Below, piece by piece: positions 606 to 32,750 of a stretch of 64,000 nt of DNA. This stretch comes from Elsinoe ampelina. Lineage: Eukaryota. Made by a program: the position numbers and the translations under genes. The notes below the pieces were generated by a model. It searched no databases and was not told where the DNA came from. It was given only the letters and a program-made list of their open reading frames with translations. Every line of letters begins with the position of its first letter. The first letter of the stretch is position 1. Where the stretch lies: the NCBI GenBank assembly GCA_010093995.1, contig ML992503.1, positions 2,186,919-2,250,918 on the forward strand, given 5' to 3'.

Positions 606-1259
606 TCATACTGAGCCTCGCTCGTCCCTCGCAATCTCTCTTGCCAGCATCTCCGCCTCCTCCCTCATCACCTCCGCCGATCTATCCTTCCTCTCCTCGT
701 CCGTCGCAAACTTCCTTTTTGACTTGCCTTGCCGTTCCCTCAAGTGCCCTCCCACGTTCCCGCCTTCCCCTTCTAGTTCAGCATAGATTGCGTCTCCGCC
801 GCCCCGGTCATCCATGTCCCCCTCCCTCCTCGGAATGACATGGCAATGCACATGCGGGACGCTTTGTCCAGCAGCCAACCCATCCTGAATCGCCACGTTG
901 AAAGCTGTAGCGTTGAAGACTCTTTTGAGAGTTGGTTGAAGCTTTTGTACTGTGAGGAACAGATCGCTGATTTCCGCCGAGGATAACTGTGATAGATGCG
1001 GTACAACTCTGTGCGGGCAGACCAGGATGTGGCCTGGCAGCAAGGGGCGCAAATTGACCAGGGCAAAGGAGTGAGGCGTGCGGTGGAAGACCTATGGAGT
1101 CAGATGCGAGCATGTGAAACATTGTGTGGGCAAATAGGACGCAGGGGCATGATAGTGACGGGTACAGGAATCGAGAGATCAAGGAAACTTGAATCGTACT
1201 TGTGGTGTAACAGTGAATGACCCAAACCGCACGGCATTGCTCAGAGAAGGTGGCGGCAT
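606..1259 (-). CDS. HNT2: Bis(5'-adenosyl)-triphosphatase, Fhit/HIT family
   Basis: Exon 1 MPPPSLSNAVRFGSFTVTPQ, intron 1199-1092, then FALVNLRPLLPGHILVCP and the HIT motif QDGLAAGQSVPHVHCHVIPR. Confidence 0.9.
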
Positions 1260-1604
1260 GTCAGCCTCGAGCTGGGTATCGCCCATGGACAACAAATATT
1301 GAATCTAGGATTTTAGCACAGCCAACGTCTCGCTTGAAATCTTTATCGTGAGCTCTGCAGTAGCGTCAGAGATGGAGGAAGTTGGGAAGCAGAAAGTGCA
1401 GATCTAGGATGAGATGAGATGAGAGGTGTTGGCACGTGAAGCAAGTCAGAACTTCTGTCACATGTTTTTTCTCCAACCTCACAACTAACATTCAAATTCG
1501 AATCCTCACGACAACTCTTCTTTGGGGGCCGCGATTCCCTCAAAGCTGTCAACGGACTGCATCGATGTCATTCCACAAGCCATAGCACGACACAGTACTC
1601 CAAC

Positions 1605-2105
1605 ATGCCTGCCGAAATCCACACCTACCACTGCCCCTGCACTTCTCTCCTCTTCGCCAGCTCGACCCTTCTCACTTCTCTTCCTCAGCGCAAACTCGAC
1701 TCTACTACCATTCTTCCGGTCACGAGCTCCCCGACACCCATCTCCCCGACCAGCAATCCGCACTTTGCAACCCTCTACTCCAAGCTAGAAGAGCACATCT
1801 TCGACCCCTCTCCCCAGGACTCACACAACCCTCACGCGACCAACGGCAGCAGCGCAGAGAAAAGAGTCAAGCTAGACCAGAGTGTCAAGAGTGAGGAAGC
1901 CCTGCCGAAAGAGTTTGTCGCAAGTCTCGAGGATGGATTTGAGAAGCGCTACCTCTTGAGATGTGGCAAGTGTGAGGCGCCTTGGGGGTATCTGCTGGAC
2001 TGGGCTTCCTGGAGTCGCGGAGAAGGGAAGGAGGGGAGGAGAGAGGACGTGCTGTATGTGCTGAAAGGGGCGGTGGAAGAGACGGAAGAGATGGGAAGGG
2101 GTTGA
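1605..2105 (+). CDS. UPF0428/STEEP1 (CXorf56)-like protein
   Basis: N-terminal IHTYHCPC...LPQRKLD and C-terminal DGFEKRYLLRCGKC..WGY; family recognised from memory. Confidence 0.6.
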   Translation: MPAEIHTYHCPCTSLLFASSTLLTSLPQRKLDSTTILPVTSSPTPISPTSNPHFATLYSKLEEHIFDPSPQDSHNPHATNGSSAEKRVKLDQSVKSEEALPKEFVASLEDGFEKRYLLRCGKCEAPWGYLLDWASWSRGEGKEGRREDVLYVLKGAVEETEEMGRG

Positions 2106-2313
2106 ATGCAGCCATTCGCGAATGGGTGTGTTGTGAAGAAGTTATGAGCATAAGCTTTGCGCCGCCACTGCAGGGGACACAGACTTGGATGGCAGCGAAA
2201 GAGCGCAGAGCATCACGATGCTTGGGACCTGGAGGGAAGCTCTGGCGACTTCATTACTGGCACCTCATTACTACGTCCTGAACTGGCCATCGTCTCCAGG
2301 AATCGGGTATCGT

Positions 2314-3450
2314 TTAGCCCCTGTAGTACCTCGCCCACTTACTCGCCCCGTCCAACACCCCGAGAAACTCCCTCGCAAAGATCCTCTCCGCCTGCTCACC
2401 CGGATGCAACTCATCGAACCACAAATAACTATCTGGACTATTACTCCTCACACAAGTCCTATTCGCGGTACACAAATTCTCCACCCCCGTGGTACTCAAC
2501 GGCTCCGCGGTCCCATTCAAATACCTCGCGGGGTTGTAGTAGATATCACTGATCAACCCCTCCATATTAAACGTCGCCACGTTCGCCCCCTTGAAGTTCT
2601 TCTCCAACACAACCTCGACCGGAGTGCGATACTGGTAGATCTCGTTCACGGTGGCGACCTCCTCGGCCATATCCGCGGAGATGTTATTGATGGCCGCCGG
2701 CGCAGACGGCTTGTTCATCCAGTACTGGTTCGGCCCGAAGCCGCCTGCGTCTGCGCGCCCGTAGAGCGGAGAGAGCTGCAGCGGTGCGATGTTGAAGAGG
2801 ACGAAGTAGCGGGCGCCGCTGTCGTATAGGCGCTGCATTTGGGCGTAGACGCAGTCGGTGTAGGTGGTGAGGTTGGTGCCGGGGACTTGGGAGTTGGTGA
2901 GGAACGAGTTGTAGTCGAGGTCGTTGGTGCCGATCCAGATTGTGTAGACGGTGCGGGACGGGGGGATGTTGAGGAAGGGTTTGCCGGTTGAGGGGACTGT
3001 GTAGGCTTTGTCGGCTAGGTAGGCGGGGAGTTCGTAGGATTCAATGTCAGGGAAGTTGGCGTTGATGGCGGAGAAGAAGCGAGGGGAGATGTTGTTGGAG
3101 CACACGGCGCCAGAGACGGCGTAGTTGTAGATGTTGATGCCCGAGTATTGGTGGACGTACTGTGGCCACGGACGGCCGCCGGAAGCAGAGTTGTAGTTCT
3201 GCATGGTGGTCAGTGGGGACGGTCAAGCTTGTGGGGGTTCGCATACCGGAGGGTTCACCCATCCGACTGGCGGCGCTGAGCCGTTGTTGTTGATGAAGTA
3301 GCCGAGCCTGCTGTCGTCCGTATAGCTGTCACCAAAGGTAACGGCAGAAACGAATCTGTCTCTGCTCCATGGTCCTTTCTTGCCTCCCAGGGTAGCAGCG
3401 GCGGTCAGCTGCGCTGAGAGTGTCAGTCCCGCAAATGCGTGGAGAAGCAT
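2314..3450 (-). CDS. Secreted SGNH/GDSL acetylesterase (CE16-like)
   Basis: Signal peptide; block I FGDSYTD; NYAVSGAVCS; WIGTND; WFDELHP; intron ~3246-3199. Confidence 0.88.
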
Positions 3451-4750
3451 CTTGTCTCTGTACGTAGCTGAACAGATGGACGGCGAGAGAAAACGGAGCT
3501 CAGAGATCGTCCTTACATATATTCCATCCCATCAAGCAAGTTTTCACTTGCCGACATCACCGCCACCGGCACCGATCTTCCATGAGTCCATGGTGATCTC
3601 CGCATAATTTTTGTCACCAGGGTACGGCTAAATTACAGCTACTCGTGTGTTTTTAGGTGGAGTGTAGAGCTTTGGGGATGAAGTCCGCGGCTAATCAGGA
3701 TAGTTACGTCGATCGTCCTGTGGAAATTCAGGAGACTAGGCCGCAACAGGCAAGTGTACCATGTCCAAAAGTGCGGAGGCTTCGGGTGAGGGGAGCATTA
3801 TAGTCAGGAAGGTAGGCATGGATACAGACCGGTTGTGAGGGATCAACTATGGATCTTGCAGGATTTGACATTGGCAGCTGCAGCCCGGCTTGATTGTCGT
3901 GCAGCATATATTTTGATGGTCAGCCACTCGTATAGTTGTGACGTCCAGTCTAAGCTCAATTTGGATTGGCCACAATATTCAGTTGACTGTGGCTAGCTGA
4001 GCTCCGTGCATTTGCTGCTCAATATCGTCATTTCAGAAGCTTGATGGCCAGCAATTGGTCGTCCTATTTCACACTTGACAGACTCCGGTCTGGGGCCGGG
4101 CACCGCTTCCACCTGCTCGGAACGCGCCATGATGCAATGCAGTGTCTGCATATTCAATCTTTGCTGTGCCCAGCCATGTTGGAAGACCTTGAGTCGAGGC
4201 AGAGTCCAGATAAGGAAGTGCGTTCGATCGAGGCAGATGAGCAACGAGAGTGACAGGAAAGGGATTGCAAACTTCGGAGCTTTGTGTTATTGCCAAGCTG
4301 GCTGATGTCGTCGAGAATGCGGCTCCTATACCCACTGTCTTGATGGCATGGTGGTGATGCCGCGTGCGTGGCTGAATCTGATATTGTTCCTGCAGATCAA
4401 TGGGGAATGCCGATATCCCTTTGCCACGTCTGGATAGCCATGTGCGCTCGCAATCATGTAGCCGTAGTCGCTACAATCACTTGTATGAGATTTTGCATTA
4501 GACAAGAGCGGAATGTTCCTGGCTTACAGATTCCTGCTGGCATTATTGGCGTCGTCTCAACATGAGTTGTTGTTTGGTATCCTATTCGCCAGCTCGCCTC
4601 CCCGACTCCGTCTTTGGGCTAAGCATGCAGGATGCTGTATAAACGACAGTGCTTCTAGTTGCTCAATGCGTATGCCCACGTCGTCCGATATTTTCATCAA
4701 ATCTCCGGCGATTTGGTATAACAAGAAGTCAATGCCAAGATATGTGTTTA

Positions 4751-4784
4751 TTCTTGTGCCCAAAAATCGCGGGATAAGCTTGGC
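4751..4784 (+). repeat. Left TIR TTCTTGTGCCCAAAAATCGCGGGATAAGCTTGGC
   Basis: Exact reverse complement of 8275-8308. Confidence 0.97.
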
Positions 4785-4914
4785 AAGCCCTCCGCGAATT
4801 TGCGTGACCAGACACCAATTTACCCCTAAACAACACTCCTAACACGGTTTACACCCCCTATGAAGCTGTAATCAAGCTGGATAACTGACTGATATAGGAT
4901 TTGAGGGTGTACTA

Positions 4915-7023
4915 ATGTCCCTATCGACCGATATTTCCACCTAAGCTCGAATTGGCTATCAGCGCGCCCTAAACAGTTTACTTGACTTCTCTATGGTATT
5001 ACTACCACTAGACAGCTTAATCGAGAGTTCTAAGCAATCTCTAACTCCTCAGCCAGAGGGTGGTTATAAGATCGACAAAGAGAGGTCAACTGCATGTCCT
5101 GTCTAACGCGTAACACAATTGCGCACTTCGTCGGCTACTAGAAGATCGTCGCCGCTCTCGAACTTAGAGCAAACACCTACTTCGCTAAGCGATAGTAACA
5201 CTCGGTCAAGTGCTTAGAACGTTCAATTTCGAGACCCTCTAGCATTAGAGGAGCCTAATAAACACCCTCTAAGTAATTTACGTCGCTCTAGCTACTTAAT
5301 AGCTAGTAAGCCACTATCTACCTTTAAGCCTAAGCCTATCTATTTAAAACCGCCGACTAGTCGTAAGAGAAGGAAGCCTTAAGCTACAACTATAGAAACT
5401 AGTAAGGAGGAGGACGCGCCGGTTATAAAGGCCGTTAAAAAGACTCTGCCGAGACAGCCAAAAAAGAGAGCTAAGAATGCTAATAGTCTAAGAACCTGCG
5501 CTTATGCTAAGAGTAACCCCCGACAACCTCTTAGAGTACTATAAGATAGCGATATAAACAAACAAACACTATAAGGGGCTTTAGGGGGTCGGAAAGGTGC
5601 CTAGTGCTCTATTTCTAACTCCTTCGGTGCTTATAGTATTATGTCGTTGTCGCCGAGGAGTTAGTAGGCATTAAGCTAGTAGGAGGCTTTACTACTAGCC
5701 TCCTTGTAGCTGCGGGTCGTTAATTTCCTTTTGTAGTGGATTACTAAACTTAACAGAGATATAATTAGCAACGTAAAGAGTGCTAGAAACACTACTAAGA
5801 GTCTATTAGGCCTCTAGCTAGATTTAAGCCGCCTTGTCGACTGTACTGCCAGCGAGATAGGGGTCGAGTTACGTATTAAGGACTGTAATGCCGAGCTCTT
5901 TAACTATATAAACACTCTTAAACTATGCGCCGTCTTTAAGGACTTTAGTGCTCTCGACTCTTTCTATTATAGGCTTAAGTAGCAGCTGCAATTTTATAGC
6001 AATATTAAGGTCTAGTACCTTAAGCTTGTTGTTAGAGAGTTATAGATTACACCGGCGGTAGAGGTGCTAGTTACGCTAGTTACGCTAAGCGCTTCTCTAG
6101 AGGTGTTATAATCTTAGTAGTTAGCGCCTTCTCCGCTAACTAAGTATATGCCACCGGATGCTTAAATAAGCTAGAATAACCTTAGGGAGGTGCGCACTAA
6201 CTTAGCACGTAATTACTAGGCTAAGATGCACTTCCGAGACTAATTCTAGCTTAATATAAGAAGTTTTTAGAGTTATACTAGCGTGTACTATCTAAACAAG
6301 CGTCAAGTAGCATGCTTCTCTATAGACAACGCTAAGTTAATTATATACTATTCTATTACTAAGGACATAGCTTTTGCATGGCGTAAGGACCTCTGCGCTA
6401 GCAATTCGACTATCTAGCAGCCTTCAAAGTACGTGATTAAGCAAATTTAGAAGGCCTATTACCGGATTTAGAAATAACATAACTAACGCTAAGGTATTAA
6501 AGGCTAGTTCTTCTCCTCTTTCTCTAGGGCTCTACTATACCCCCTCTACTCTCTCCCTCTCCACTAACAATTCTTTATAAATAGCTATAGTCCTATAGCA
6601 CCTCTTCCGACCTCTACTAACACCTCTACTAACTCTTATTATCTAGCTTAACGTAGTTCGAGGTTACTACGCTCTTAAAGTAATAGATTCTCCTTGTGTG
6701 CTAAGGGACTTAACTCTCTAGCCTACCTCTGCTAATTTTTTAAGTTTCTTAAGCATAAAAATCCGGCTTACTAAGCACAGCTTAGTGCCACCTTTACAGA
6801 CCTCGAGCGTGGCTATTAGAACGTAAGGCTACTTTAAAAGGCATTAAAGGACGACGTTAAAGAGGCTATACTACAATTTAGCCTTTGTAGCCTTATCTAG
6901 TCGTCTCTCCGGAGGTTTATACGTAAGCATTTACCACCTATCGATAGAGCACTATAGAACGACGCGTAGCGTAACAATAAGGCTAATATTAAGACTAATA
7001 TAGATAATAACGAGCTTATATAG
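4915..7023 (+). pseudogene. RIP-inactivated ~700-codon accessory ORF of the DNA transposon, function unknown
   Basis: One frame from ATG 4915 to TAG 7023 interrupted only by TAA/TAG; low-complexity N-terminus with SRKRRKP, Cys/His-like motif at ~6268-6380, acidic tail after de-RIP. Confidence 0.75.
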
Positions 7024-7037
7024 TCCTTCTATTAATA

Positions 7038-8080
7038 TTATACATTTACTGTACAACTTCTAAAGATAGCCTTCTAATTCACACTATTACTAAACCTATT
7101 AGCCGCCTCTTGCACAAAGTCTACAAAATCGCTGTAATACTCTAGTAATAGCTACTCCGGCGCAAGGTGGCAGTAACGGCGCATCTACTACTTTAATAGG
7201 TAGAAGCTCTTCTCTATTGGATTAAGATCTAGTAAATAGGCTAGTAGGAAGATAATAGCAACCTCGTAACTACGAGCAATATATATAAGTACCTAAAGTA
7301 TTAGCTTAGCGCTTACTTATATTCGATTTTGCTTACTTCACGCCGGTAAATCGAGTAATTATCTAGCACTACTACTGACCGCGGGCCTAGAAAAGGTATA
7401 CACTATAGCATTAGGCAGTTCTAAAACCAATCCTTAAAGATCTCGGCGGTAATTAAGCCTTAGAAGACTATAGGATCCTTTAACTACCCCTCCTTAGTAA
7501 TGGCTAGAAGCACTAAGAAGCGCTTACTAATATGCCGGCCTATCCGATCCGCTACTAGCACGCCTTATGTAGCACGACCTTAGCGCCTTATTAAGCACCT
7601 TTCGCTTACTATAGCCTTGTTAACAAAGACGAGCTAGTTGCTCTAATAGTGCTTAACGTCCTTACGCTAAGTACTACGTAATCCCTTGTCCCTCTAGCTA
7701 GCAATCCGACCTATCACCTTAAGTGGCAAATCTCGAGAAAGGAGGCTACGACTAACAGTAGATTATAACACTAACACTCCCTATTTAAGCTTAAGGTACT
7801 CTACGTACTTGTCTAAGTACATATTAGGCTTATCTATTGCAAGCCGCTTAAGATCATTAAGCATCTCGTCAGTAAGGGTCCTTAGCTGACCCCTATCTTA
7901 GAGGGCTATTAGAAGCTTAATATAGCTAGTATTATGCCAATTTTTGCGCCTCTAGCTAATAGCGCTACGTAAGAGGTAAGGCATAAGCCTATACACGCTA
8001 TCTATTGTCCTTCTATCCTTAAAAAAGGCTTAGAGATCGCGTTAATCTTGGATAGATAGCTAAGATAGTTACGGCGCTAT
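7038..8080 (-). pseudogene. RIP-inactivated DD34E transposase (DDE_3/IS630-Tc1 type)
   Basis: LVFVNKA (=FVDEA), PRSVVVLDNYSIY, intron 7336-7293, IFLLAYLLDLNPIEKSF (=FLPAYSPDLNPIE); 34 residues between the second D and E; start codon probably ATG>ATA. Confidence 0.9.
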
Positions 8081-8274
8081 AAGATAGCAATCCAGCTCGC
8101 GTCTAGTTCGTGATCCGAGATAGGGTCCAATTCGCGCTAGATGGATGTCTAACTCGGCCTCTAAGATAGATTAATAGTATAGACCAGTTCGGCTTCAAAT
8201 GGATGCGAGATGGATGAATAATTCACGAAATGGGCAAATATTGGTGGATTTTAGTGGGTGCAGCTATCTAAAAC

Positions 8275-8308
8275 GCCAAGCTTATCCCGCGATTTTTGGG
8301 CACAAGAA
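8275..8308 (-). repeat. Right TIR
   Basis: GCCAAGCTTATCCCGCGATTTTTGGGCACAAGAA followed by TA. Confidence 0.97.
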
Positions 8309-8521
8309 TATCGATGGCCGGGCCAGGCCTGGCACGTGCCAGGTTCAAAACTGTTGTGCGGTTCAACGTCACCCTCTCGCCTCATCTATTTCGTGTTTCA
8401 TCGATGGGGTCCTCACCCGATAGCGCGACTAATCCGCTGTACAGACGCCATGCTAGGTGCATCCAAGATATCGCATCCGCTCAGATGTTCAGTCACAGAG
8501 CGATAGTGAACGACAATACTG

Positions 8522-10027
8522 TCAGAATGGACGTTTCTTGAGGGCTACGACCGGAGAGATGGGCTTCATGAACCCGTCACGGATATCATCGTCTCCCTGG
8601 CCCACCGATTCTTTGGCCTCGAAAGGAGCTTGCCGTGTGTAGCCTTTTGGCGGACGTCGAGCGATAATGACACTCCTTGCATAGATCAGCATGATACCAC
8701 TGCTTGCAGCGACGAGGACAGAGGATACCACTCGATATAGGCTTGAACATCAGCCCTTCGTAGATCAGCGACAGCGCGGCGCAAGAGGTTGTCAAAGTCA
8801 TCTTTGGACATGTGCTGGACACCACAAGCAAGCCACAGACCTAAACTCGCAAGACTCTGTACGACTAGGTCAAATGTCTGCTCTTTCAATGTGATGTCGC
8901 CTATCACTGTAAGCCTCGAAGTTCCAACTGGAGCTGATACTCACGATCGGCCTGCCATGCACCAATATGCCATCGATGTATTGTGCGCGATATATCCACA
9001 TAACCGACAGAGTCCAGGATGGAAGCGGCATGCTCAACGAAGGAACCGTCACGACCCAACATGTTCATACCTGTTCGGTACATCTCGATCCAATCTTGAA
9101 GTCCTTTCGCATTCCTGGCATCGTCACCGATAAGTCGACCCGTCCTCGATTGTATATTGCCAAAATTAGCCTCGATGATTTGGATCCAGCCACCTCTGAT
9201 CAATAGGCCCCTGAGCTCCCTCAACAGGGGTCGCCAGCGTCTGTGCGAGATGCCTTCTGTCAAGCATCGGATATTTACCAAGTCGAAATTGGCGACTGGA
9301 TCGTACACCTCCAAAGCATTCCTTCTGGCACGGTAGAGTGGGCTTTGTTGAAGAGAGTCGTTTTCCAAGTGATCTTCGCTGGAATCCTGCCGTCAGGAGA
9401 CTCGGTAGTGGGATCGACGCGGTCGGTCATCAGATGGTCGTCGCGTACGGCATCACCAGTCAATGAGATATCCGGGTCGAGGTTGTTCGATCCAGACTCT
9501 TCCTCTTCGTCCAAATCATCCTGAACATCATCGTCGAAATTATCAGTATACACGTCAACGTTTGTGATCTGGAAGGTATCAGCGCTTCTTCCGGTCCAGA
9601 CAGTCGAGGACCCTGCAAGATCACGACATGTTCCAGCCCAGCAAGTTAAGGACAACGTACCCTACATGTCTCTCCATCCTCGTCCTCGGACTGCCCATCA
9701 CAGTATTCCTCGATGTCGTCGCTCCAGAATCCTGGTCCGCCTCCGCAGTCGAGAATCCTTCTAGGTCGTTGGTCTCTTGTGAACACCAGCGTATCGAATC
9801 TAGCGATCAAATGCCGATTCACTAGTTCGAGCCGAGCCTCTTCAGTCTAGACACCATGGAATCAATACTCGTTCGTGGACTTCCCGATTAAAAGATCGCT
9901 TGCCATGTTCGATTGATCCAGGACTTACTTGATCGACTGGGAGAAAGTTGGCGCCTTCACGCAGCGAATACCCGTGAAACTTCCTTCCGAAATGAACCTC
10001 AGTTTCTTGATCGATGGTTGGCATCAT
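8522..10027 (-). CDS. Class I SAM-dependent methyltransferase, LaeA-like/Methyltransf_23 type; about 6 exons
   Basis: FGRKFHGYSL..FLPVDQ|TEEARLEL..RILDCGGGPGFW..FDLVNIRCLTEGI..RWRPLLRELRGLLIRGGWIQIIE; start codon uncertain. Confidence 0.75.
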
Positions 10028-20328: not shown

Positions 20329-20586
20329 TGTTGACTTGTGTGGGGAGGAAAAAGGATTAATTACTGCCTGATCCACTAACCTGAGGTGGATTGTAACTAC
20401 ATAAATACTCAACCTGATAAACTGAGAGATAGATGAATCAATAGAACTCCTAAGTAACAACAGATTAAGACAATAACTATCTAATTTAATTATAGATTAG
20501 TAAAATAGTAAGATAGTGTTTAGTTCATCCTTGGGATAAACTAAATCAGGGTCTTCTTGGCGCTCTAGCTTATGCCTCGGTTGACA
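20329..20586 (-). repeat. Copia 3' LTR (258 bp)
   Basis: TG...CA termini; direct repeat of 32395-32652; adjacent PPT AGTGAAGGGGTG on the minus strand. Confidence 0.95.
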
Positions 20587-21123
20587 CACCCCTTCACTAA
20601 GTAGCTATAACTCTATAATAGCTAGTTAGTAGACTACTAACTCGAGGGATAGCTATTATAAGAAGGCCTTATACCTCCTAGGTGGCAATGATTTAGTAAA
20701 TCCATTAGCTAGTATATCTGCTAATAGTGTCTATGTAACTAAGATAGGACTAGATAGATCTCTAGCTTAATTAATCTCTTGTTTTAGCCAATAATAATAA
20801 ATATTAATATAGTAAAGGCGTGTGTTTAGCTTCTTAATTAGAGTAGTAATAAGACTAATAGTTTACTAATTATTATACTAAATGCTAACATGTTTAAGGG
20901 GATAGATAGAGGCTATTAGCCTCCTCTACTATATAGCTTGCTTAGTAGTCTCTATAAGAGTAAGTAGCTTAGCCTCTATAGTTAATATTATAACTATTAA
21001 TTGCTTTATAGCTTTCTAGTTAATTAATCCTTAAAACATCTTAAAGAGATAGCCTTAAAGGCTCTTCCTTGTTAGGTAGCTACTAAAGCTAGTATCTAAT
21101 AAAGCTTAAAAGATTAGTAGTAG

Positions 21124-21693
21124 NNNNNNNNNNNNNNNNNNNNNNNNNNNNNNNNNNNNNNNNNNNNNNNNNNNNNNNNNNNNNNNNNNNNNNNNNNNNN
21201 NNNNNNNNNNNNNNNNNNNNNNNNNNNNNNNNNNNNNNNNNNNNNNNNNNNNNNNNNNNNNNNNNNNNNNNNNNNNNNNNNNNNNNNNNNNNNNNNNNNN
21301 NNNNNNNNNNNNNNNNNNNNNNNNNNNNNNNNNNNNNNNNNNNNNNNNNNNNNNNNNNNNNNNNNNNNNNNNNNNNNNNNNNNNNNNNNNNNNNNNNNNN
21401 NNNNNNNNNNNNNNNNNNNNNNNNNNNNNNNNNNNNNNNNNNNNNNNNNNNNNNNNNNNNNNNNNNNNNNNNNNNNNNNNNNNNNNNNNNNNNNNNNNNN
21501 NNNNNNNNNNNNNNNNNNNNNNNNNNNNNNNNNNNNNNNNNNNNNNNNNNNNNNNNNNNNNNNNNNNNNNNNNNNNNNNNNNNNNNNNNNNNNNNNNNNN
21601 NNNNNNNNNNNNNNNNNNNNNNNNNNNNNNNNNNNNNNNNNNNNNNNNNNNNNNNNNNNNNNNNNNNNNNNNNNNNNNNNNNNNNNNNNNNNN
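21124..21693. other. Assembly gap (570 N) inside Copia pol
   Basis: Run of n. Confidence 1.
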
Positions 21694-22662
21694 AATACTA
21701 GGATAGTCCTTTATAAGATTCTCTACTACTAGCTTAAATCTAAAAGGGATAGTATAGTAGGTAGTCTTATTAATAGAGCTATTAATATAGGCATTAATAA
21801 CATCTATCTAGATAGCCTTTATGTCTTTATAAGCAAGTAGAGCTATAAGTATTCTAAAGATCTTAGCTGCTAGAGTTGCTATATAAGTCTCTAACTCTGT
21901 TAATTATAGATTACCTCTTATATAAACTCTTACTTTATACTTTATAACCTCTTCTTTATTATTAACTTTATAGGTAAATACCTATATTAAAGAGATAGGC
22001 TTACTAGTTACTTAAGCAACTAGTATAATAGTCTATATGTGTTTAGAGTGTAAAGTAAGTAATTTAGCCTTTATAGCTTCTTAAAATTGCTTCTTATAAG
22101 AATAAGCCTTAAGCTCTTTAATATTAGCTAGTAGTAGAGGGAGATTGTCCCTTAATTCTAGCTTATGCTAAGTTAGCTATATTAATAGATAAGCATTAAA
22201 AGCTTAATAATATCTAGGTACTTTATTAGGCTATATAAGAGTAGTAATATATACTTACCTTCTTAGCTTCCTTGTCCTTCTTATAGTAAGGATATACTTA
22301 GGAAGAAGGTTAGCTAACCTAGTAGTAATTCTTTAAGAGAGTTACTTAGATTAACTTTTAACTACCCCTTTAGTCTAAACTTCTACCTTATCTCTCTTAG
22401 CTTTATCTCCTCCTATTAGTAGAGGAGATAGCTATACTACTATAGGTAGTAGTAAGGCTAGAACATTAAAGAACTAATTATTTAGTAAAGATTCCTAGAT
22501 CTAAGCTAGGTTTAGATCTAGAATAGCCTTATCTAATTAGTCTAATAGAGGTAGTAACTAATCTAGTATAATAGAGTAACCCTTATCTAGCTACTAAGAT
22601 AGGCTTAGCCCTTAAGCTAGATTACTCTAACTTAGAGTCTAAGATAGTATCTAGTTCGGCTA

Positions 22663-22722
22663 CTAAACTAGATTCTAAACTAGATTCTAAACTAGATACT
22701 AAACTAGATACTAAACTAGATT
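22663..22722 (+). repeat. 12-bp tandem repeat CTAAACTAGAT(T/A) x5 in the Copia IN-RT linker
   Basis: Directly visible; unit length preserves frame. Confidence 0.85.
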
Positions 22723-23203
22723 TAGTTTAGTTATTCCCTCTACTTTATATATCCCTTTAGATTTATTAATCTCCTATAGGAGCCTTAGTAGATTAAGCAA
22801 TCTAATTAGTTTTAGCTAAGGTTGTTCCTCTAGCTTATAGAACTAAGTTTTATTAAATCTAATATCTCTTATTCTAATAACCTTCTTAGAGGCTAGTATA
22901 AAGATCCTAAAGATGTTAGTTAAGTTATAGCTAACTAGATAGCTAATATAAGCCCTTAGTGTAAGCTTATTACTACTTATAATAAGCTTATCTAAAGTAT
23001 AAGCTTTATATCTAAGTGGCCTAAGATAAGCAACTAATAGAGAGCATCTATAAACTAGCTTAAAAGGAGTCTTCTAGTCTAGCTTCTTAAGAGATGTTCT
23101 ATTAATTAGATAGGCTACTAATCTGTATAGTTTAGAGTGTAATTCCCTTAGTAGATTAGCAAAGATAGTAATTGCCCTTACTCTTCTTAATAGTATAGCT
23201 CCT

Positions 23204-23666
23204 TGTCACGAACCGTCTAAATACAGCCTACGCTAGTAGTCTAAGCTAAGCTAGGAACGAGGTAGTTCTACTTCTATAGTAGTATAGTACTAAGGTAAGA
23301 GTTAGAGAAGGTATGTCTTATAGATAATAAAGTACAATTAGATAGTATTATAAAGGCTAGCCTTAGTAATACTAGTATTTGCTATCTAGACGAGGTTAAC
23401 TATAGTACTTATATAAGGTAAGGACTATTCCTATATATATATGTTCTCTATTGTGTTCTCTATATACTCTATATACTTCGTAGCGAGAGTCGGGGGCAAT
23501 ATAGAGTACACGTCCGCTAGTAACCTACGTGCTCTATAGTTTTAGGGGTAGAGCTACTAGAGAAGATAGAGAACTAGGTAAATATTAGGCTAGGTTACGT
23601 AATAATCTCGGCAGCTTAATTAGTCCTAACGTCCCTATATTCTAGCTGTCCTACTAGTTCGTAACA
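23204..23666 (-). repeat. Gypsy 3' LTR
   Basis: TGTCAC...GTAACA; matches 29759-30221 with transition differences. Confidence 0.95.
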
Positions 23667-23740
23667 TTACCCTCCTCCTTTAATTAAGTTATTCTAACGA
23701 GTAAGTATCCTTTCTTGTCCTTACGCGCTATGCACTAAAT

Positions 23741-24289
23741 ATGCCTCCTAGTTGTCGAAGGCATAGCAAATCTAGTATATCCGTACGAAAGAATCTCTCG
23801 AAGTTTATTAAACTATTTAGAACTAACATGCTATAGGCTTATTCTCGTTGCAAATCGAAGGGGCTAGACTATAAGGTCTATATTCGGTCGGGTATCTATA
23901 GCTAGTGTATCGTAAGTAACTACTCGAGTTATAATATTTAGATAATAAAATCGAAATAATAGTGTCTTTAGTCTAAGCATATTCGTTTGCGAAAGGAATT
24001 AGTTATAGCTAAGGCTACTAGAAGAGAAGCTAAAGAAGCTTATAAAAAGGCAAAAGAGGCTTATTAAAGAGCTATAGGCGATAAGCTTCGCCTACGCGAA
24101 GAGATATAAAAGTTAAAGGACAAGGCGGAGAAAGTAATCTCTCTAGAAAAGACCTGTATTTAAGTCTTAGAGTAGGAGGAAATACTATCGTTAGTGGATC
24201 CCGTTCTACTATAGGACTAGTAGTTATTTATGCCCGACTCTAATTAGAGTTCCTTACTTAGCAACGATTAAGGTACTTCTATTAGTTAA
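23741..24289 (+). pseudogene. Antisense accessory ORF of the Gypsy element: Zn2Cys6-spaced motif plus coiled coil
   Basis: AYSRCKSKGLDYKVYIRSGIYS*CIVSNYSSYNI gives C-x2-C-x6-C-x8-C-x2-C-x7-C when TAT is read as TGT; followed by an E/K/R-rich helical stretch; start uncertain. Confidence 0.7.
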
Positions 24290-27200
24290 GCGATCTTCCT
24301 TAGGCATTCTCGTTTTTGTTTAGTGTTTAGAGTGCTAGGTCCGTCTAGTTAGTTTACTTAGGATAGGTTCTCGATCTAGTAATTTAGAATTACTTACGAG
24401 GTAAGGTGCTCCTCTAGTTCCTATGTTACTTTACTATACTAATGTCCCTTCTAGTAAATAAGATAGTAGCGTTTTTCTTTTATAAGTTTATAACGTAAAA
24501 CCCTTTCTATCTTATACCGTAGCTCCTATGTTTCTTCCTCTAGTTCGATAAGTCTAGGTATAGTATTCTATAGTACTTTCTCTAGTAGTAATATATAAAA
24601 GACTAGATAAATCCTTATATGTCTTAGTAGTTCTAGTTTATATACGTTCTTGTTTTTCTTTTCTAGGATCTTAAAGGGTCCTAGTTTAGTGTAGTTAAGT
24701 TTCTTACTCAGTCGTTTCGTTTTAATGTTTTTACTAAGGAAGTAAACTTTCTCTCTCTCCTATAGAATTAGTCCTACAATTCTCTTCTAGTTAGTAAACT
24801 CTACTATTCTTTGTAATATAAATACTATATTATAGTATAGCTAGTCGTGTAGTTTCTTAATGTTAGCTACTAGTATATTAGTATCCTTAGATACTAGCTT
24901 AATTCTAAGTGTATCGTAGTATAGATCCGGGTATATTCTATAGTTTACATAGAATAGTAAAATTCTATTTGCTAACTTTCTATTGTTAATAGCGAGCTCT
25001 ACGAGTAGTAATAGCGTTGCCTATAAGTCTTGCTTATAGTTTAGGTAGCATCGTAGGTACTACTCTAGTACTTAATTTGCCCGTTTAGTTTATTCGTCCG
25101 TTTATAGGTAAAAGGAGGTTAATAGCTTATATTTAACTCCTAGTAGGTCTATAAATAATTACTAGAATTATAATGTAAATAGCTTATCCCTGTTAGTTAT
25201 TAGGTCTTATAGTACTCTATGTTATAAAACAATTGTTTAGAGGAAGGCAAAGGCTATATCCTTAGTAGTTGCTATTATCTTATATAAGACAAAGTAGTAA
25301 TACTTCGTAAATCTATCTACTAGGACTAGAATGCTATTGTACTTTACACCTATAAGAGGTTCTTCTAATAGCAGTAGAGGTCCTATAAAGTCTATCGTAA
25401 CTGATTGCTATAGTTTGTCCGGTGGTAGTAAGGGTTATAGTAGGCTATATAGTCTATATCGAGAGTGCTTAGACTTGTAGCATGTATCGTAGGCAGCGAT
25501 ATATATCTTAACATCGTTTCGGAGTTCTTTCTAGAGGTAGTTTTATATAATAAGTTTGATAGTCTTATTAATCCCGCTATGTCCCGCTATTAGATTATTA
25601 TAGTATATTCGAATAACTTCTTTCTTCCGTTCTTATATAAGCTCCTAGGTAAGGCTATATAACTACTTTACCTTCGGGTACTTATAGACTAGAGCGCCGT
25701 CCTACTACTTTAGTATAGAGGCCTCTATTATTGTTATGTTTTTTAAGTAATTTAGCTAGCGGCTAAGAGCGTCTACTCCGCCGTTCTCTAATTCCTTAAT
25801 ATAGTAGATCTAGAAGTTATAGCTTATAAGTGTTTCTAACTATCGAACCTGTTGTCTATTAAGAACCTTAGTTATTATCTAATATAGAAGGTTCTTGTAG
25901 TTGGTATAGACTTATATAGGTAAGGTCGTCCCTTCTAGGTATACTCTCTATTCGTAGAACACTTCTATAATTGTAAGTAATTCCTTGTCGTGTATGTCGT
26001 AGTTAAGTTTAGGTCCGGTTATTTTTCGTAAGTAGTATATAATTAGGCAGCATCGTCCTTCTATGCCCTTCTACGCTAGACACGCTTCTATCGCAAAGTC
26101 TAAGGCATTCGTTTCTAGTAGTGCTTATTAGTCTAGGTCGAAGAGTACTAGGATAGGTGCTATTATAAGCCTAAGCTTTAGCTCCTTAAAGGCCTACCTA
26201 TACCTCTCGTTAAAGACAAAGCTAGTTTCCTTTTTCGTGAGGTTAGATATTAGCGTAGCTACCTTAGAGAATCCTTTAATAAACTTGCGGTAGTAGTTAA
26301 AGAACTCTAGTAGCGCTTAAACCTCCTTAACTATCGTAGGTTCCGGCTAGTTATTTACTAACTTAATCTTCTTCGGATTAGGTCCGATGCTATTAGTAGA
26401 TATAATATAGTCTAGAAATTGTATCTTATGTTTATAGAACTTATACTTAGAGAGTTTTACTAGTAGGTCTTTTTCTTTTAGTTTCTATAGTACTTTACAA
26501 ACATGTCCTACGTATTTGTCATACGTCTTTAAGAAGATAATAATATTATCTAAATATGCTAAGACAAAATCGTTAAGGTATTCTCGTAGAGTGTTATTAA
26601 TTAACTCTTAGAAGGTTACGGGAGTATTAGTTAACTTAAAGGGCATAACAAGGTACTTATATAGACTCTATTACGTTCTAAAAGCTATCTTTTACTCCTT
26701 GCTCTCCTTTATTTATACTTAATAATAGGCATCCCTAATATTAATTACAGTAAACTATTTAGCTCTAAGTAGTCGGTCTTAAAGTTCGTTAATCCTTAGT
26801 AGGGGATAGCGATTCTTCCTAGTAAGTGTATTAAGTTTCTAGTAATTAATATATATTTGTAACGTTCTATCCTTTTTTAGTGTAAAAAGCACTCCGTACG
26901 CAATAGGTAATTTTAATAGTTATATAAATCCTTTAAGTAAGTACTTGTCGATATAGTCCTTAAGGACATTCTTCTCTTATTTTGATAGTAGTATAAGACC
27001 TTAATAGTGTATCGGGGATTTATCTTCTTTAAAAGGTATTTCGTAATTCTATAGTTTATATTAGGGTAAGGCTACGATGCCTTCCCTTTCTTTAAATAAG
27101 TCCTCGAAGTCTTTATATTCTAGCGGAAGTGCTTAATTACTTACGCTAGCGATAGCTCTAACTATTAGTTGTACCTATACTATCCTTATAGTTAGTATCT

Positions 27201-27660
27201 ATAGAGCCGATTATACTCCCTATATTCTATAATTACACTTAGGGAATTCAAGTGTTCCTTTAATCTAGTCTACGTCTAGATTGTGTTATTAAAGCTAGTC
27301 TATACTAAGTACTATATTATACTACATGTTAACTATATCGATTAATCGTTTTTCCGTGTGTATTCTAATTTAGATTATAACGTTTTATAGTTCTTAAGTA
27401 ACTTTCCTATTCTTCTCTATAGGGGTTCTATCTACTATAGTAAGTAGGTAAGGTAACTCCTTCTAGTGTTAATAAGGTTTAAGCTAATTAGCAACTGTTA
27501 TAGAGACGTAGCTATAGTTAGCTCCCGAATTTATTATTGCTCTTACTTTACTCTCTTATATTTTAACTTCTAGTATAAAGTAGTTTAACGTGTAGATCTT
27601 TATTATATTAAGGCTTTAGCTAGTGTTATTGTCTTGCCTTATTAGGCGACAACTAGCTAG
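24290..27660 (-). pseudogene. Gypsy pol (PR-RT-RH-IN-chromodomain)
   Basis: Motifs listed above; 3' end approximate. Confidence 0.88.
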
Positions 27661-29642
27661 TTTTTTGTCATTATAGCTCCTTAGATAAGTAGCTAATCCC
27701 TTCCTATACGTATCTACTATTAGTACTATATCTATTAGGCAAGTTGTGTTTTATCGCTATTTAATATAGTAAGGTAAACTTCTAGCGCCTAAGTCCCTTA
27801 GTAACTATAAAGTCTAATAATTCTCTACTAGTTACACTAAGTAGTGTTATACACCTATATAGGTATAACTATTCCTTCTAGGTGTAGCTAGGCGTTAGTA
27901 TTAAAGACAAAAACAAGTTATATAGATTTGTCTTGTCGCGTCCTATTCTAGTAGTAGGTGTATATTATTATATAATTCCTCTATATCCCTATAAGGTATA
28001 CTTTAAGTCGTCCGCCCGATAGTAGTATATCGTTATTATTGTTATTGAATAAGTTCTTATCTATATTATTATATCGTAGTTGTTCGGTATATTCTTCGTT
28101 ATATTTCTCTTCGTCGCTACTGCCCCTAGTATAGTTATAGTTAGTAAGGCTACACTAAGTACATTCTTTTACTTAGCTATAGGGAATAGTACTATCTATC
28201 TTAATTACTGAGAAGTCTATAGTATATTTAAGACTAATAGTGTCTTCTCTAAGCACATCGTGTAAGTAGATAGTATAGTACTATTTATAATCTAGATTTG
28301 TACATTTCTAGAGCGACATATAATACGCCTTTTCTTATAGTTCGCTATAAGGGCTAAAGGTAAGACTACTATATTATTGCGTGGCACTCGCGTCCTAATA
28401 CTTTGTCTCGATAATCGTATATTAGTAATTGTCGCTAACTACCTTCTAAGGTTAGTTAATGTTACTACTAATTATAGAAAGCCTTTCTAGGTTAAGCCCC
28501 TAGTCTAGCTATTTTGTTAGTTGCCTACGCTTAGATAGCTTATATAGGAACTAACTAGATCCCTACTTGTCTAATAAGTAAATATAATAAGAGTTATTGT
28601 AATATACTATCTATAATAGCGTTGCGTTTTAGCTTTGTCGTTCGCTATTAGTCGTAGAGATATTAAGTATAACATCTAGAGAGGATTCTATTATCTCTCG
28701 AGTCGTCGTAGACCTCTTCTATATTTCCTTGCCTACGCTAAAGGTCGTTAGGTCTTCTATAGTAGTGTCGGCCTTTTTTTCTACTAGCCTAGCAACTATT
28801 ATATGTAATCTATCGGCTGGCGCCCCTTGTCGGTAGTCCCTAGCCCGATGCCTAGGTCTTTTATACTTAAAACATAGATTATCTCGTCTATACTTCTCTC
28901 TTTCTTTTCTACTAAGGAACTTTCCTCTACGACTGTAGCCTCGTGCCTATAAGGGGTAGCCTTCGTGTATAGCATTAAGTTCTATAGGGTCTCTATAGTT
29001 TTGAAAGGAACGCATATATCTAGTATTTGCCTTATATCCCCTATAACGTTCTATACGTCGTTCGTAAAGTCTGTTATCGATAGTAATTATAGTGTCTACT
29101 AGTTCCTAAAGGCTATTAGGCGGCTCGGGTATTATTTAGTCTTTAACTAAGTCGCTTAGTCCTTAATAGAATACTAAGTGTTTAGTACTATTGTCCTAGT
29201 CTAGGTGTATTACAAGTTGTTAGAACTAGGAATAGTACTAGGCTATAGACCTACGTTGTTATAATTATTAGATCTTCGTTGCGGCGACACGTTCCTTGTT
29301 AGATATATTAAAGACTTACTTAATCTTTGCCTAGAAGATACTAAAGCTCTTAAAGATAGCCTTTATATCTAGGCCTAGTTATCTATCTAGGTAGCTACTT
29401 ATATAAGGCTCGAACCACTCGAAGGCGGCGCCCTTAAGGTATATCCCGGCATAGAGGACCTTTGCTACGTCGTTGCCGTACTTGTCTCTCTCTAGGGCGA
29501 AGAAGGCTTTAAGTTAAACAAGGAAGTGCCTTAAGTAGGCGCGGTCCCCGTAGAAGAGTTCCACCTCTAACTTAGGCCTACTCTGTCCTTCTATACTAAA
29601 AGACCTTCTATATTCGCCCGAGGTTAAACTAGTAGTAGACAT
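27657..29642 (-). pseudogene. Gypsy gag with CCHC knuckle and long C-terminal extension
   Basis: ATG 29642; LKGAAFEWFEPY; LCFKYKRPRHRARDY (=CCHC); start is in frame with ACA AAA AAC TAG ending at 27657 (662 codons). Confidence 0.82.
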
Positions 29643-29758
29643 GTTATTAATAGTAAGCTTTCCTAGCTTACTAGCGATCGAAGATACTAATAGTAACTTA
29701 GAGCGAGAGTTACTTATTAACCTCGTAGCGTGCTATACTATAGTAAGGGTAGTTAAAA

Positions 29759-30221
29759 TGTCATAAACCGTCTAAATATAGCCTACGCTAGTAGTCTAAG
29801 CTAAGCTAGAAACAAGGTAGTTCTACTTCTATAGTAGTATAGTACTAAGGTAAGAGTTAGAGAAGATATATCTTATAGATAATAAAGTACAATTAGATAG
29901 TATTACAAAGGCTAGCCTTAGTAATACTAGTGTTCGCTATCTAGACGAGGTTAACTATAGTACTTATATAAGGTAAGGACTATTCCTATATACATATATT
30001 CTCTATTATGTTCTCTATATGCTCTATATACTCCGTAGCGAGAGTTAGAGGCAATATAGAGTACACGTCCGCTAGTAACCTATGTACTCTATAGTTTTAG
30101 AGGTAGAGCCGCTAGAGAAGATAGAGAACTAGGTAAACGTCGGGCCAGGTTACGTAATAATCTCGGTAGCTTAATTAGTCCTAACGTCCCTATATTCTAG
30201 CTGTCCTACTAGTTCGTAACA
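29759..30221 (-). repeat. Gypsy 5' LTR
   Basis: Direct repeat of 23204-23666. Confidence 0.95.
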
Positions 30222-32394
30222 CTTCTATCCTTTTATTATAACTATTCTAAGCTTAAGTATAGGGAGTAGATAGCTTATAATAGATTCCTTTACTATCTAG
30301 AAAGATAGTAAATTTAAGGCTAAAGGCCCTCTTATTGTCACTCCTAAGGAATCTAATTTTAAAGCTAAAATTGCTTTTAATATAAGTAATTATCTTAATA
30401 TAGATTTTATTAATCTTATATCTATAAGTATAGGTAGTAACTAGTTAATAGTTAGTAGTCCTATAAGCAAAGTAGCTTATATATCTTGCCTTATTATAGC
30501 TAGTAAATCTATTAATAATAATATTAAAGGTAGTTCTCTTAAATAGCTTTAATGTAGCATGTTTAGTGTTAGAACTCCTTAATATAATCTACTAAGCATT
30601 TAATAGCTTATAAGTCTAATATAGAGACCTAAGATAAATTAGTTAAGCTAAACTAGGCTTAGTTAGAGTTAGTTCACTACTAACTATAGCAGTTAGAAGG
30701 TAATTAATAGACTCTAGACTTAGATAGCCTATAACTTTATACTAAGATTAATTAGTCCTTATAGTAACTATAGTAAATACTAATAGTAGACAATTATTAT
30801 TATTCCTTAATACTATAGTAGTAACATTAGGAGCTTTAGAGTTATCCTTAAGGATATATTAGTTATACTTTAGTATAACTAAGAAGAGTACTCTTCCTTT
30901 ATAGCTAATTTCTATAGTTTAAGTATTCTAGTAAACTCCACTATTAATAAACCTCCTAAGGCTAACTAGATTAGTTATAATTAATAGTATATAGGCTACC
31001 TTTATAAGATAGATAGTTATAGGCTTTCCTTTATAAAGAGCTATAATATTAATAGTTCTCTAACTCTTAATACTAAGTAAGGTATTACTATAGAATAGCT
31101 TCTTATAAGGTTCTATAATTCTAGTAACCTTATATCTGTCCTTTATAGTATAATTATAGATGTAATTAGTTACTCTAGAATCTAGTATCTATAAGCTTAA
31201 GATGTTACTAGTGGCTAAAATAAATACTAAGTGTAATCTAATAGTTATAGCTATGTTAATTAGCACTAGTAGGGTTAACCCCTTCTAATGTTATACTTTC
31301 TTAGTAAGGATAGTATTAATTCTCTCTTTAAGAGTCTTATTATTTAGCCTCTGTCTAACCTCCTTTATAGTCTACTAGTTTAGTGTCTATCTATCTAGCC
31401 TTATATACTTATTTAAGTAATAGCACTTGCTCTACTTATACTAGCCTTAATATACACATTTAGGCTCCCTAATAGAACTAGGTTTCTTATAAAGAACATT
31501 CTTAGTAGCTATAGAGAAGGCCGTAGCCCCCTTGCTAGTCTTTGTGTTATTATATAGCTTATGAAGTTTATAGAACTATCTAAATTTAGTAATTAGTTTA
31601 AGTATAGTTAGTAGAGTTAGTAAATCTAGATTAATAAGGTACTTATTAGTAAATGCTAGTTTAGTCTTAGAGATAGAAAGTAAGAAGTCTCTTTATAGCC
31701 TTAAGCCTTAAGCTTCTAGTAGATTATAGTTCCTAGCCTTATCTATAACCTCTTCCTATTACTAAAGCTAATAGTCTATGTTCTATAGGGAAGAACTAGA
31801 GAGTTATTTCCTCTAGAGTGCTTTAACTTCGAGCTATATAGCTACATTAGATAGAGCAAATCTATTCTTTAAGGCTCGAAGAATAGCCTATAGATAAGGA
31901 TCCCCTTCTAGCTAAATAACAGTAAGAACTTATAGTATAATTAATAACTAAATAAGGCTAGCTAAATTAGCTAAGGCCTTATACTATTTGTTATGTTATG
32001 CTTGTTCCTCCTTATATATCTAGAAGAGTGCTAAGAAGTTAACATTTGCTACTTCTAGCCTCTAAGGCTTAGGAAGCCCCTCTAGTTTAATAGTCTTCTA
32101 GGGATTAATAAGGTTCTATATCTTAGTGTTTAATACTCTTGTCTTAATAATATATAGCTAGCTAGTCTATTTAGCTAATGTAGCAAGAATAATAGGTGTT
32201 CTAGCTATTAAGGTGTTAGTATCTATAGTTATTTATCTCCTTGTTAATACCTAAATCCTATAGTTGTAGTTAAGGCAGTTCTTAACAGATTCTAATGCTT
32301 AAAAAGCAAGATAGTAGAGAATTAACTAATGAATAGAGTAGGAAAGTAACTAAGTGATGTGCTTATGCAGGGGTAGTTATACTAGGCTTATAAC

Positions 32395-32652
32395 TATTAA
32401 CTTGTGTAGGGAGGAAAAAGGATTAATTACTGCCTAATCTACTAACCTAAGGTGGATTATAACTACATAAATACTTAACCTAATGAACTAAGAGATAGAT
32501 AAATCAATAGAACTCCTAAGTAACAACAGATTAAGACAATAACCATCTAATTTGATCATGGATTGGTAAAATAGTAAGATAGTGTTTAGTTCATCCTTGG
32601 GATGAACTGAATCAGGGTCTTCTTGGCGCTCCAGCTTATGCCTCGGTTGACA
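32395..32652 (-). repeat. Copia 5' LTR
   Basis: Direct repeat of 20329-20586. Confidence 0.95.
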
Positions 32653-32750
32653 CCATGTTATTCACATTTCACAAGAGAAGAACAGTCTGATCAGAATCTA
32701 GAATACATGTGGCTAGTAATCTACTAGCAAGCAAATGGGGTCCCTGGATA

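Follow-up and report, generated by a model that had tools for sequence, protein, structure and literature searches.

We analyzed a 64,000-nucleotide stretch of the Elsinoe ampelina genome (GenBank assembly GCA_010093995.1, contig ML992503.1, positions 2,186,919 to 2,250,918 of the forward strand; hereafter the window, numbered from its first letter) and found that positions 4749 to 8310 hold one inactivated member of a two-gene DNA transposon family that is present in multiple copies. Within the IS630-Tc1-mariner superfamily, the element falls in the Tc1 (DD34E) branch, and it resides in a filamentous fungus proficient in repeat-induced point mutation (RIP). Between its terminal inverted repeats (TIRs), it carries a transposase gene and a larger, convergent second gene, termed here open reading frame 2 (ORF2). 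The two genes had become repeats in the genome before RIP destroyed them, and ORF2, until then intact, belongs to a fungal protein family that is rare. We consider it very highly probable that ORF2 is a real gene inside the mobile unit and, with slightly less assurance, highly probable that it is carried by the transposon family and not by this copy alone. The complete statement, in which a dead two-gene Tc1 transposon carries an ORF2 with an accessory role, is almost evenly balanced.

Element ends, insertion site and transposase

The two arms of the element, at 4749 to 4784 and 8275 to 8310, are 36 nt long and 100% complementary, and each consists of a TA dinucleotide and a 34-bp TIR. The left TIR spans 4751 to 4784 (plus strand) and the right TIR spans 8275 to 8308 (minus strand), with all 34 of 34 bases complementary. 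The TIR 34-mer has exactly two occurrences in the window, and shuffled sequences gave 0 of 100. The element proper therefore measures 3558 bp (4751 to 8308), and the TA at 4749 to 4750 and at 8309 to 8310 is its target-site duplication. A blastn search found no second copy of the element in the window.

Contigs of public runs were aligned to positions 4400 to 8700. In run X4, which is another sample of the same organism, a contig fuses 4748 to 8309, so that 3560 bases are absent and a single TA remains. A splice was considered as the origin of this joint, but neither the ends of the skipped piece (TA..AA) nor any of the three equivalent shifts resembles an intron on either strand. Because of these ends, and since no X4 contig covers the interior of the element, the joint corresponds to an empty site. 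The 3558-bp unit thus entered a TA site as a single piece, and the second sample of the organism lacks it. The perfect 34-bp TIRs, the TA duplication and the 3558-bp size had all been claimed in the original prediction, made from the sequence alone, and each was confirmed by these measurements.

The transposase gene lies on the minus strand, between 8080 and 7038, and comprises 332 codons and a stop. Its reading shifts frame at approximately 7300, and removal of a predicted 44-nt intron (7336 to 7293, GTAAGC...CTTTAG) restores the frame and the D-34-E arrangement. Exon 1 (8080 to 7337, 248 codons) contains a putative helix-turn-helix region and the first two catalytic positions, and exon 2 (7292 to 7038, 84 codons with the stop) contains the catalytic E within DLNPIE. 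In the spliced reading, 34 residues lie between D240 (VVVLDN) and E275 (LNPIE), and 85 residues lead from the first catalytic position, 154, to D240, the triad being placed by motif (VVVLDN, LNPIE) and not by structure-based alignment. Position 154 now reads N (LVFVNK), which corresponds to a G>A change. The start codon is now ATA, and the gene holds 22 internal stops, all of them TAA or TAG. With stops read as X, residues 42 to 247 matched positions 30 to 237 of 299 in the NCBIfam profile of the IS630 family transposase (NF033545; E 8e-6), and Pfam HTH_32 was matched under its cut-off (E 0.045 to 0.098). No match to the transposase was obtained among PDB sequences by phmmer, or to exon 1 in a word-index protein search, in which at most 8000 word-sharing candidates were scored. 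The splice model and the 34-residue D-E spacing agree with the intron-containing DD34E transposase proposed earlier for 7038 to 8080 of the minus strand, with its intron a predicted one.

The two genes are convergent and are read inward from the element ends. Between the left TIR and the ORF2 ATG there are 130 bp, and between the right TIR and the transposase start there are 194 bp. Both intervening subterminal regions are free of RIP, with normal RIP indices; that at 4785 to 4914 (plus strand) presumably holds the 5' untranslated region and promoter of ORF2, and that at 8081 to 8274 (minus strand) presumably holds those of the transposase. The heptamer CACCAAT occurs at 4813 to 4819 on the plus strand and at 8240 to 8246 on the minus strand, in each case 62 nt from the element end and pointing inward. 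By a rough calculation, the chance of such a coincidence of offset is approximately 0.01, and the heptamer is not enriched across the window (9 found, 6 expected). It may serve as a CCAAT-box promoter element or as an inner binding site for the transposase. At the center of the element, the stop codons of the two genes (7021 to 7023 and 7038 to 7040) are separated by a 14-bp spacer (7024 to 7037), the distance stated in the original prediction, and since they lie so close, the two transcripts probably overlap at their 3' ends.

ORF2 and its protein family

ORF2 spans 4915 to 7023 on the plus strand and comprises 702 codons and a stop, without an intron and with 43 internal stops of the RIP type. 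The three plus-strand frames of 4785 to 7040 contain 91, 48 and 54 stops, and a clear deficit of stops in the ORF2 frame relative to the other two extends only as far as approximately 5650. As stop counts alone do not single out the frame, it was proven by homology. A phmmer search with the translation of 4915 to 7020, stops read as X, against 1.84 billion representatives matched two proteins, P0007 (546 residues; E 2.1e-58; ORF2 residues 18 to 535) and P0008 (670 residues; E 7.6e-50; ORF2 residues 37 to 671). Both matches are collinear with ORF2 and together span residues 18 to 671 of its 702. P0008 is the Elsinoe fawcettii "hypothetical protein D9617_69g078030" (KAF4547024.1), and P0007 is encoded on an assembly contig of 2144 nt; each protein forms a singleton cluster among approximately 15 billion proteins. 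By tblastn, both proteins match the single frame at 4993 to 6870 without a frameshift, and no second copy of ORF2 was found in the window, where the other matches had E values of 0.44 or worse. The alignment extends from a start codon common to ORF2 and P0007 to a common acidic C terminus, where ORF2 (..DNNELI) is aligned with the end of P0008 (..DDDEL), indicating that the present stop of ORF2 is close to the original one.

The substitutions between ORF2 and its homologues also have a direction. P0007 and P0008 are both stop-free, with 34% identity between them (E 1e-67). Opposite the ORF2 stops, the two homologues carry Q at 7 of 32 and 8 of 39 aligned positions, compared with 6.4% and 4.5% overall, and W at 3 of 32 and 3 of 39, compared with 1.6% and 1.0% overall. 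P0007 and P0008 share the same residue in 187 columns, and ORF2 agrees with them in 95 of these and differs in 92. Starting from a codon of the shared residue, changes of C>T or G>A alone could produce the ORF2 residue in 43 of the 92 differing columns, compared with 3 for the reverse changes and with 13 and 8 for two transversion controls. Moreover, conserved Cys and His residues of the homologues read as Tyr in the window, as expected of RIP-type C>Y and H>Y changes. With two intact homologues, the plus-strand frame of about 700 codons first proposed at 4915 to 7023 is upheld as a real gene.

Wider searches added no further relatives. A word-index protein search with ORF2 gave no match, and one with a profile of the three sequences gave only P0008, in each case among at most 8000 word-sharing candidates. 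The same profile gave 292 pattern matches in metagenome contigs and 168 in viral contigs, of which 0 were confirmed in either set, and a 22-base piece of the TIR had 0 matches in metagenome contigs.

Several features of the protein can be read from the sequences. The N-terminal 235 to 265 residues have an isoelectric point of 10.0 to 10.6 and consist of 77 to 79% disorder-promoting residues, with basic clusters resembling nuclear localization signals and short conserved motifs between them. Further along, both intact homologues contain a W-x-C-x4-C-x7-C-x10-H motif (P0008, residues 430 to 456; P0007, residues 450 to 476), from which the window copy departs solely by C>Y and H>Y substitutions of the RIP type. 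An AlphaFold model of P0008, built from three sequences, had a mean predicted local distance difference test score (pLDDT) of 38, and only residues 398 to 510, approximately, reached 60 to 74. The Cys/His motif falls in this sole moderately confident region, which is modeled as a beta-hairpin followed by helices, and is a probable zinc-binding hairpin. A wide fold search with the P0008 model gave a best Z score of 5.1, in the common range, with none above 8, and named no fold.

A separate model of the C-terminal 100 residues had a mean pLDDT of 59 and showed three long helices. The two models of the C terminus disagree at low confidence, one having five short helices (pLDDT 46 to 58) and the other three long ones. 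The protein-atlas features of P0008 residues 395 to 670 were nearest to three SAM-domain clusters (0.87; 155 to 161 of 256 features), which is a lead only, and no Pfam match to the SAM domain (PF00536 or PF07647) was found in the ORF2 C terminus at E values up to 1. The C terminus is a conserved module, predicted to be helical, and the second model did not bear out the SAM kinship. The ORF2 family had a best E value of 0.86 against PDB sequences and no Pfam match to Myb/SANT. The best Pfam matches of P0007 and P0008, GH134 (E 0.016) and Arch_fla_DE (E 0.056), were far under the cut-offs and were taken as noise.

RIP, repetition and host surroundings

Over the interior of the element (4910 to 8080), the TpA/ApT index was 2.15 and the (CpA+TpG)/(ApC+GpT) index was 0.53, compared with 0.54 to 0.61 and 1.21 to 1.27, respectively, in the flanks; the threshold quoted in the available text of PMC4112212 for RIP is a TpA/ApT of >0.89. 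The content of guanine plus cytosine (GC) falls from approximately 0.53 in the flanks to 0.39 to 0.43 within the element. The indices over ORF2 are as extreme as those over the transposase, and the in-frame stops of the two genes are TAA or TAG in 65 of 65 cases (43 in ORF2 and 22 in the transposase), and CpA>TpA changes can create no stop other than these two. ORF finders miss both genes because RIP filled them with such stops, which is the explanation that the original prediction had given for the absence of ORF2 from its list of reading frames. In addition, since RIP acts only on repeated DNA and is as heavy over ORF2 as over the transposase, ORF2 was part of the repeat.

As seen in a sliding profile, RIP tapers over the last 150 to 250 bp at both ends of the element, and the flanks are spared. 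These last 150 to 250 bp, including the TIRs, are unmutated even though repetition is no lower at the ends than in the interior, and the fading of RIP toward the ends explains why the TIRs have remained perfect. The taper may be due simply to RIP being weaker close to the borders of a repeat, or it may also reflect the survival of copies that could still be moved in trans.

Repetition was evaluated with run X1, which is probably from the source genome, by aligning its contigs at no less than 80% likeness. A total of 456 contigs fell on the stretch, with a summed depth of 956 to 3542 per bin in the element and 179 to 183 in the flanks. Over 4832 to 6991 the summed depth was 956 to 2372 per bin, and across the element it was roughly 5 to 19 times that of the flanks, although summed contig depth is not a copy number. 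Separate contigs of approximately 300 nt over ORF2, each of about single-copy depth, carried 33 to 39 differences apiece. Among the X1 contigs, 511 of 548 kinds of difference (93%) were transitions (C>T, 204; G>A, 158; T>C, 78; A>G, 71). The multi-copy cover, which includes ORF2, and the predominance of transitions indicate that ORF2 was multiplied with the element. At 4748 and at 8312, contigs also continue from the element ends into dissimilar flanking sequence, each case being seen in two records of low agreement, which points to other insertion sites. One X1 contig skips 83 bases, 5072 to 5154.

The element was inserted upstream of a host gene, where the host DNA is transcribed. In runs X3, X4 and X5, contigs skip 4471 to 4527, where CT..AC on the plus strand corresponds to a GT..AG intron of a minus-strand transcript, and the X4 contig continues across the empty site. 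No long ORF was found across the insertion point. Approximately 1.2 kb downstream lies a minus-strand ORF (3531 to 2316) with an FGDSYTD motif, which is putatively GDSL/SGNH-hydrolase-like. The insertion may lie in a long 5' leader of this ORF and could affect the gene in strains that carry the element. Run X3, which has spliced host RNA, also yielded a 255-nt contig identical to 4984 to 5238, at a depth of 6 compared with 55 to 91 for the neighboring exons; it may stem from weak transcription of this inactive copy or from carried-over DNA and was not counted as expression.

Elsewhere in the window, an AT-rich block at 20331 to 32653 (GC, 0.12 to 0.40) is bounded by outer direct repeats of 257 nt (20331 to 20587 and 32397 to 32653, 93% identical) and contains inner direct repeats of 300 nt (23204 to 23503 and 29759 to 30058, 94% identical), together with a 12-nt tandem array at 22663 to 22722. 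This block looks like nested, RIP-mutated long terminal repeat retrotransposons.

Candidate roles of ORF2 and related systems

By analogy with other transposons, we tentatively read ORF2 as an element-borne accessory protein that would help the element, a possibility that falls somewhat below an even call. The transposase presumably recognized the TIRs and mobilized the unit through a cut-and-paste process, and each unmutated subterminal region presumably served as the promoter of the adjoining gene. In the accessory reading, ORF2 would be a nuclear protein whose N-terminal half is basic and disordered, followed by a predicted zinc hairpin and a helical C-terminal module, and it might bring the transposase to the element ends or to chromatin, or might regulate it, as modeled on MURB of MuDR and on the Myb-like protein of Harbinger. 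An accessory gene is favored over a housekeeping host gene because the family amounts to two singleton clusters among approximately 15 billion proteins. The absence of any nested TIR or direct repeat around ORF2, its tight packing (130 bp on one side and 14 bp on the other) and the start codon in common with P0007 argue in the same direction. The original prediction had taken ORF2 for an integral part of the family, acting as a targeting factor, regulator or anti-silencing protein. Its place in the family is favored by its position inside the unit delimited by the X4 empty site, by multi-copy cover over 4832 to 7000 and by its RIP mutations; the proposed roles gained no such support, as no domain, fold or partner was found.

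Several observations weigh against an accessory role or against parts of the two-gene description. Tc1/mariner transposases work without an accessory protein, and the linkage of ORF2 to a transposase is known from this one genome. Pfam searches of ORF2 in three frames gave no match at or near the cut-offs, and no DNA-binding or enzymatic domain was recognized. For the transposase, read with its stops as X, NF033545 scored 25.5 bits against a cut-off of 100 and Pfam DDE_3 scored 13 to 14 bits (E 0.05 to 0.075) against a cut-off of 28.6, although scores under the cut-offs are expected given 22 stops and many RIP missense changes; the 44-nt intron is predicted from sequence logic. The mean summed depth was approximately 1750 over ORF2 and 2710 over the transposase, so that some copies may be without ORF2, or ORF2 may be more diverged. 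This difference in depth and the skip of 5072 to 5154 hint that the copies vary and that ORF2 may be incomplete in some of them. Finally, the X1 contigs are short, and no single other copy was seen with both genes end to end.

A published precedent points to a different explanation. As described in the available part of their paper, Manning et al. (2013; PMC3538342) found in Pyrenophora tritici-repentis a Tc1/Mariner family carrying an ORF "sequestered between the TIRs," which was recognized through the Pfam domain Osmo_CC (PF08946). The two coding regions are both present in 31 of the 46 members of the family, and a comparable tandem pair was reported on an Alternaria alternata bacterial artificial chromosome. 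The authors read the arrangement as transduplication, the capture of a host gene, which likewise counts against an accessory role. Applied to the element in the window, ORF2 would have been captured from the host or another origin and copied passively, with no role in transposition; we regard this as the main, if somewhat doubtful, alternative. It fits a transposase that needs no helper, the lack of a transposon-type domain in ORF2 by Pfam and the annotation of the E. fawcettii homologue as an ordinary single-copy gene. In the E. fawcettii genome preprint, whose available text does not mention contig 69, gene models overlapping RepeatMasker matches were removed, and a transposase beside the P0008 gene may be missing from the annotation for that reason. 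Against capture, a host gene should have orthologues in many sequenced relatives, yet only 2 of 1.84 billion representatives match, both of them singleton clusters. ORF2 is also complete and conserved from start to end, with no extra flanking DNA beyond the 130 bp and the 14 bp, unlike typical fragment captures, and the A. alternata pair mentioned in PMC3538342 hints that such pairs persist across genera.

It is improbable that ORF2 acts against the host, by countering silencing or RIP, or that the convergent layout limits the transposase through antisense RNA. The stops lie 14 bp apart, so that the transcripts probably overlap, and the ORF2 protein looks nuclear and largely disordered, each of which is a hint only. 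The copy in the window was nevertheless mutated by RIP, as were other copies, judging from their transition-dominated differences, and no similarity to known silencing suppressors was found.

Less probable still is that 4785 to 7037 is a separate repeat, nested in or fused to an ordinary one-gene Tc1 element, in this copy alone or in a few copies. The difference in mean depth between ORF2 and the transposase and the want of a long contig with both genes in another copy would fit such a fusion. Against it, no inverted or direct repeat was found inside the element that brackets ORF2, and the segment encodes nothing to move itself. Multi-copy depth also extends over both ends and over the junction bin at 6992 to 7135 (2262), and RIP density is unbroken across the ORF2-transposase junction. 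The idea that the ORF2 frame encodes no gene, and that its matches are proteins mispredicted from degenerate repeat copies, could appeal to the 2144-nt contig of P0007 and to matches that are unnamed or "hypothetical," but it is close to refuted by two stop-free proteins of 546 and 670 residues that are 34% identical, collinear and conserved at W, C and H positions, and by substitutions whose direction is that of decay from an intact coding state.

A broader picture can be drawn from the accessory reading, although we consider it unlikely as a whole. Here, a two-component Tc1 lineage of Dothideomycetes would carry a nuclear ORF2, with a basic arm, a zinc hairpin and an oligomerizing tail, that co-evolves with the transposase and is needed for transposition, targeting or the evasion of host defense; antisense control would operate between the two genes, and the P. 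tritici-repentis and A. alternata pair would be a second example. If ORF2 was merely captured, the element would be a second and cleaner case of transduplication by a fungal Tc1 transposon, a useful but modest result. As a practical matter, repeat and gene annotation pipelines miss ORF2 in RIP-mutated genomes, because of the RIP stops and the lack of a Pfam family, and label it a "hypothetical protein" where the genome is clean.

The element shares with Tc1-like DD34E transposons the TA duplication, short perfect TIRs, a transposase of approximately 330 residues with a putative N-terminal helix-turn-helix part and the D..D-34-E signature. It differs from the single-gene Tc1 elements in being about twice as long and in holding a larger, convergent second gene between the TIRs. 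Cut-and-paste elements are usually described, in the passages available from PMC4122938 and PMC4112212, as TIRs around one transposase gene, and a canonical Tc1/mariner element has the transposase as its sole gene; here, ORF2 at 4915 to 7023 has intact homologues. Complete copies of up to 3.9 kb are noted in the available text of PMC4112212. A second Tc1 gene goes unmentioned in the available portions of PMC4112212, PMC5751038, PMC3017866, PMC4522978, PMC4210507, PMC4994206 and bioRxiv 2025.06.16.659975. In the literature searched, the P. tritici-repentis case was the only two-gene fungal Tc1/mariner element found.

That family, as far as the available text describes it, resembles the present element in being a Dothideomycete Tc1/Mariner family with a second ORF between the TIRs that was amplified with the transposase. 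Its ORF was recognized by Osmo_CC, whereas ORF2, P0007 and P0008 have no Osmo_CC match at E values up to 1, and no P. tritici-repentis protein is among the two phmmer matches. The second gene here therefore seems to be a different one. Therefore, the novelty suggested for the architecture in the original prediction holds in part: judged from the available text of PMC3538342, the two-gene Tc1 layout has already been published once in fungi, and what is new is the unnamed ORF2 family, apparently a different second gene. Outside fungi, the TBE/Tec elements of ciliates also fall within the Tc1/mariner superfamily, combining a DD34E transposase with extra ORFs, one of them on the complementary strand (PMC7325037, in the text available). 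They are unlike the present element in having three ORFs, TIRs of approximately 700 bp (Tec), extra genes of recombinase and zinc-finger types and a place in the ciliate germline (PMC7325037, same text).

Two-gene systems are also known from other superfamilies. In MuDR of maize, mudrA and mudrB are convergent between the TIRs and each is driven from its own end, and the second gene encodes a non-enzymatic helper protein of narrow taxonomic range. MuDR belongs to the Mutator superfamily, with long TIRs and a 9-bp duplication, and has no sequence relation to the present element. PIF/Harbinger elements, of yet another superfamily with another target site, combine a transposase with a required second protein that is Myb-like, DNA-binding and competent for nuclear import. 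Mutator, CACTA and Harbinger all evolved helper proteins, whereas Tc1/mariner is the textbook self-sufficient, one-gene transposon and the basis of widely used gene-transfer tools. A lineage in which a conserved second protein is stably carried would add this superfamily to those with helpers, and a new protein family would gain a testable function.

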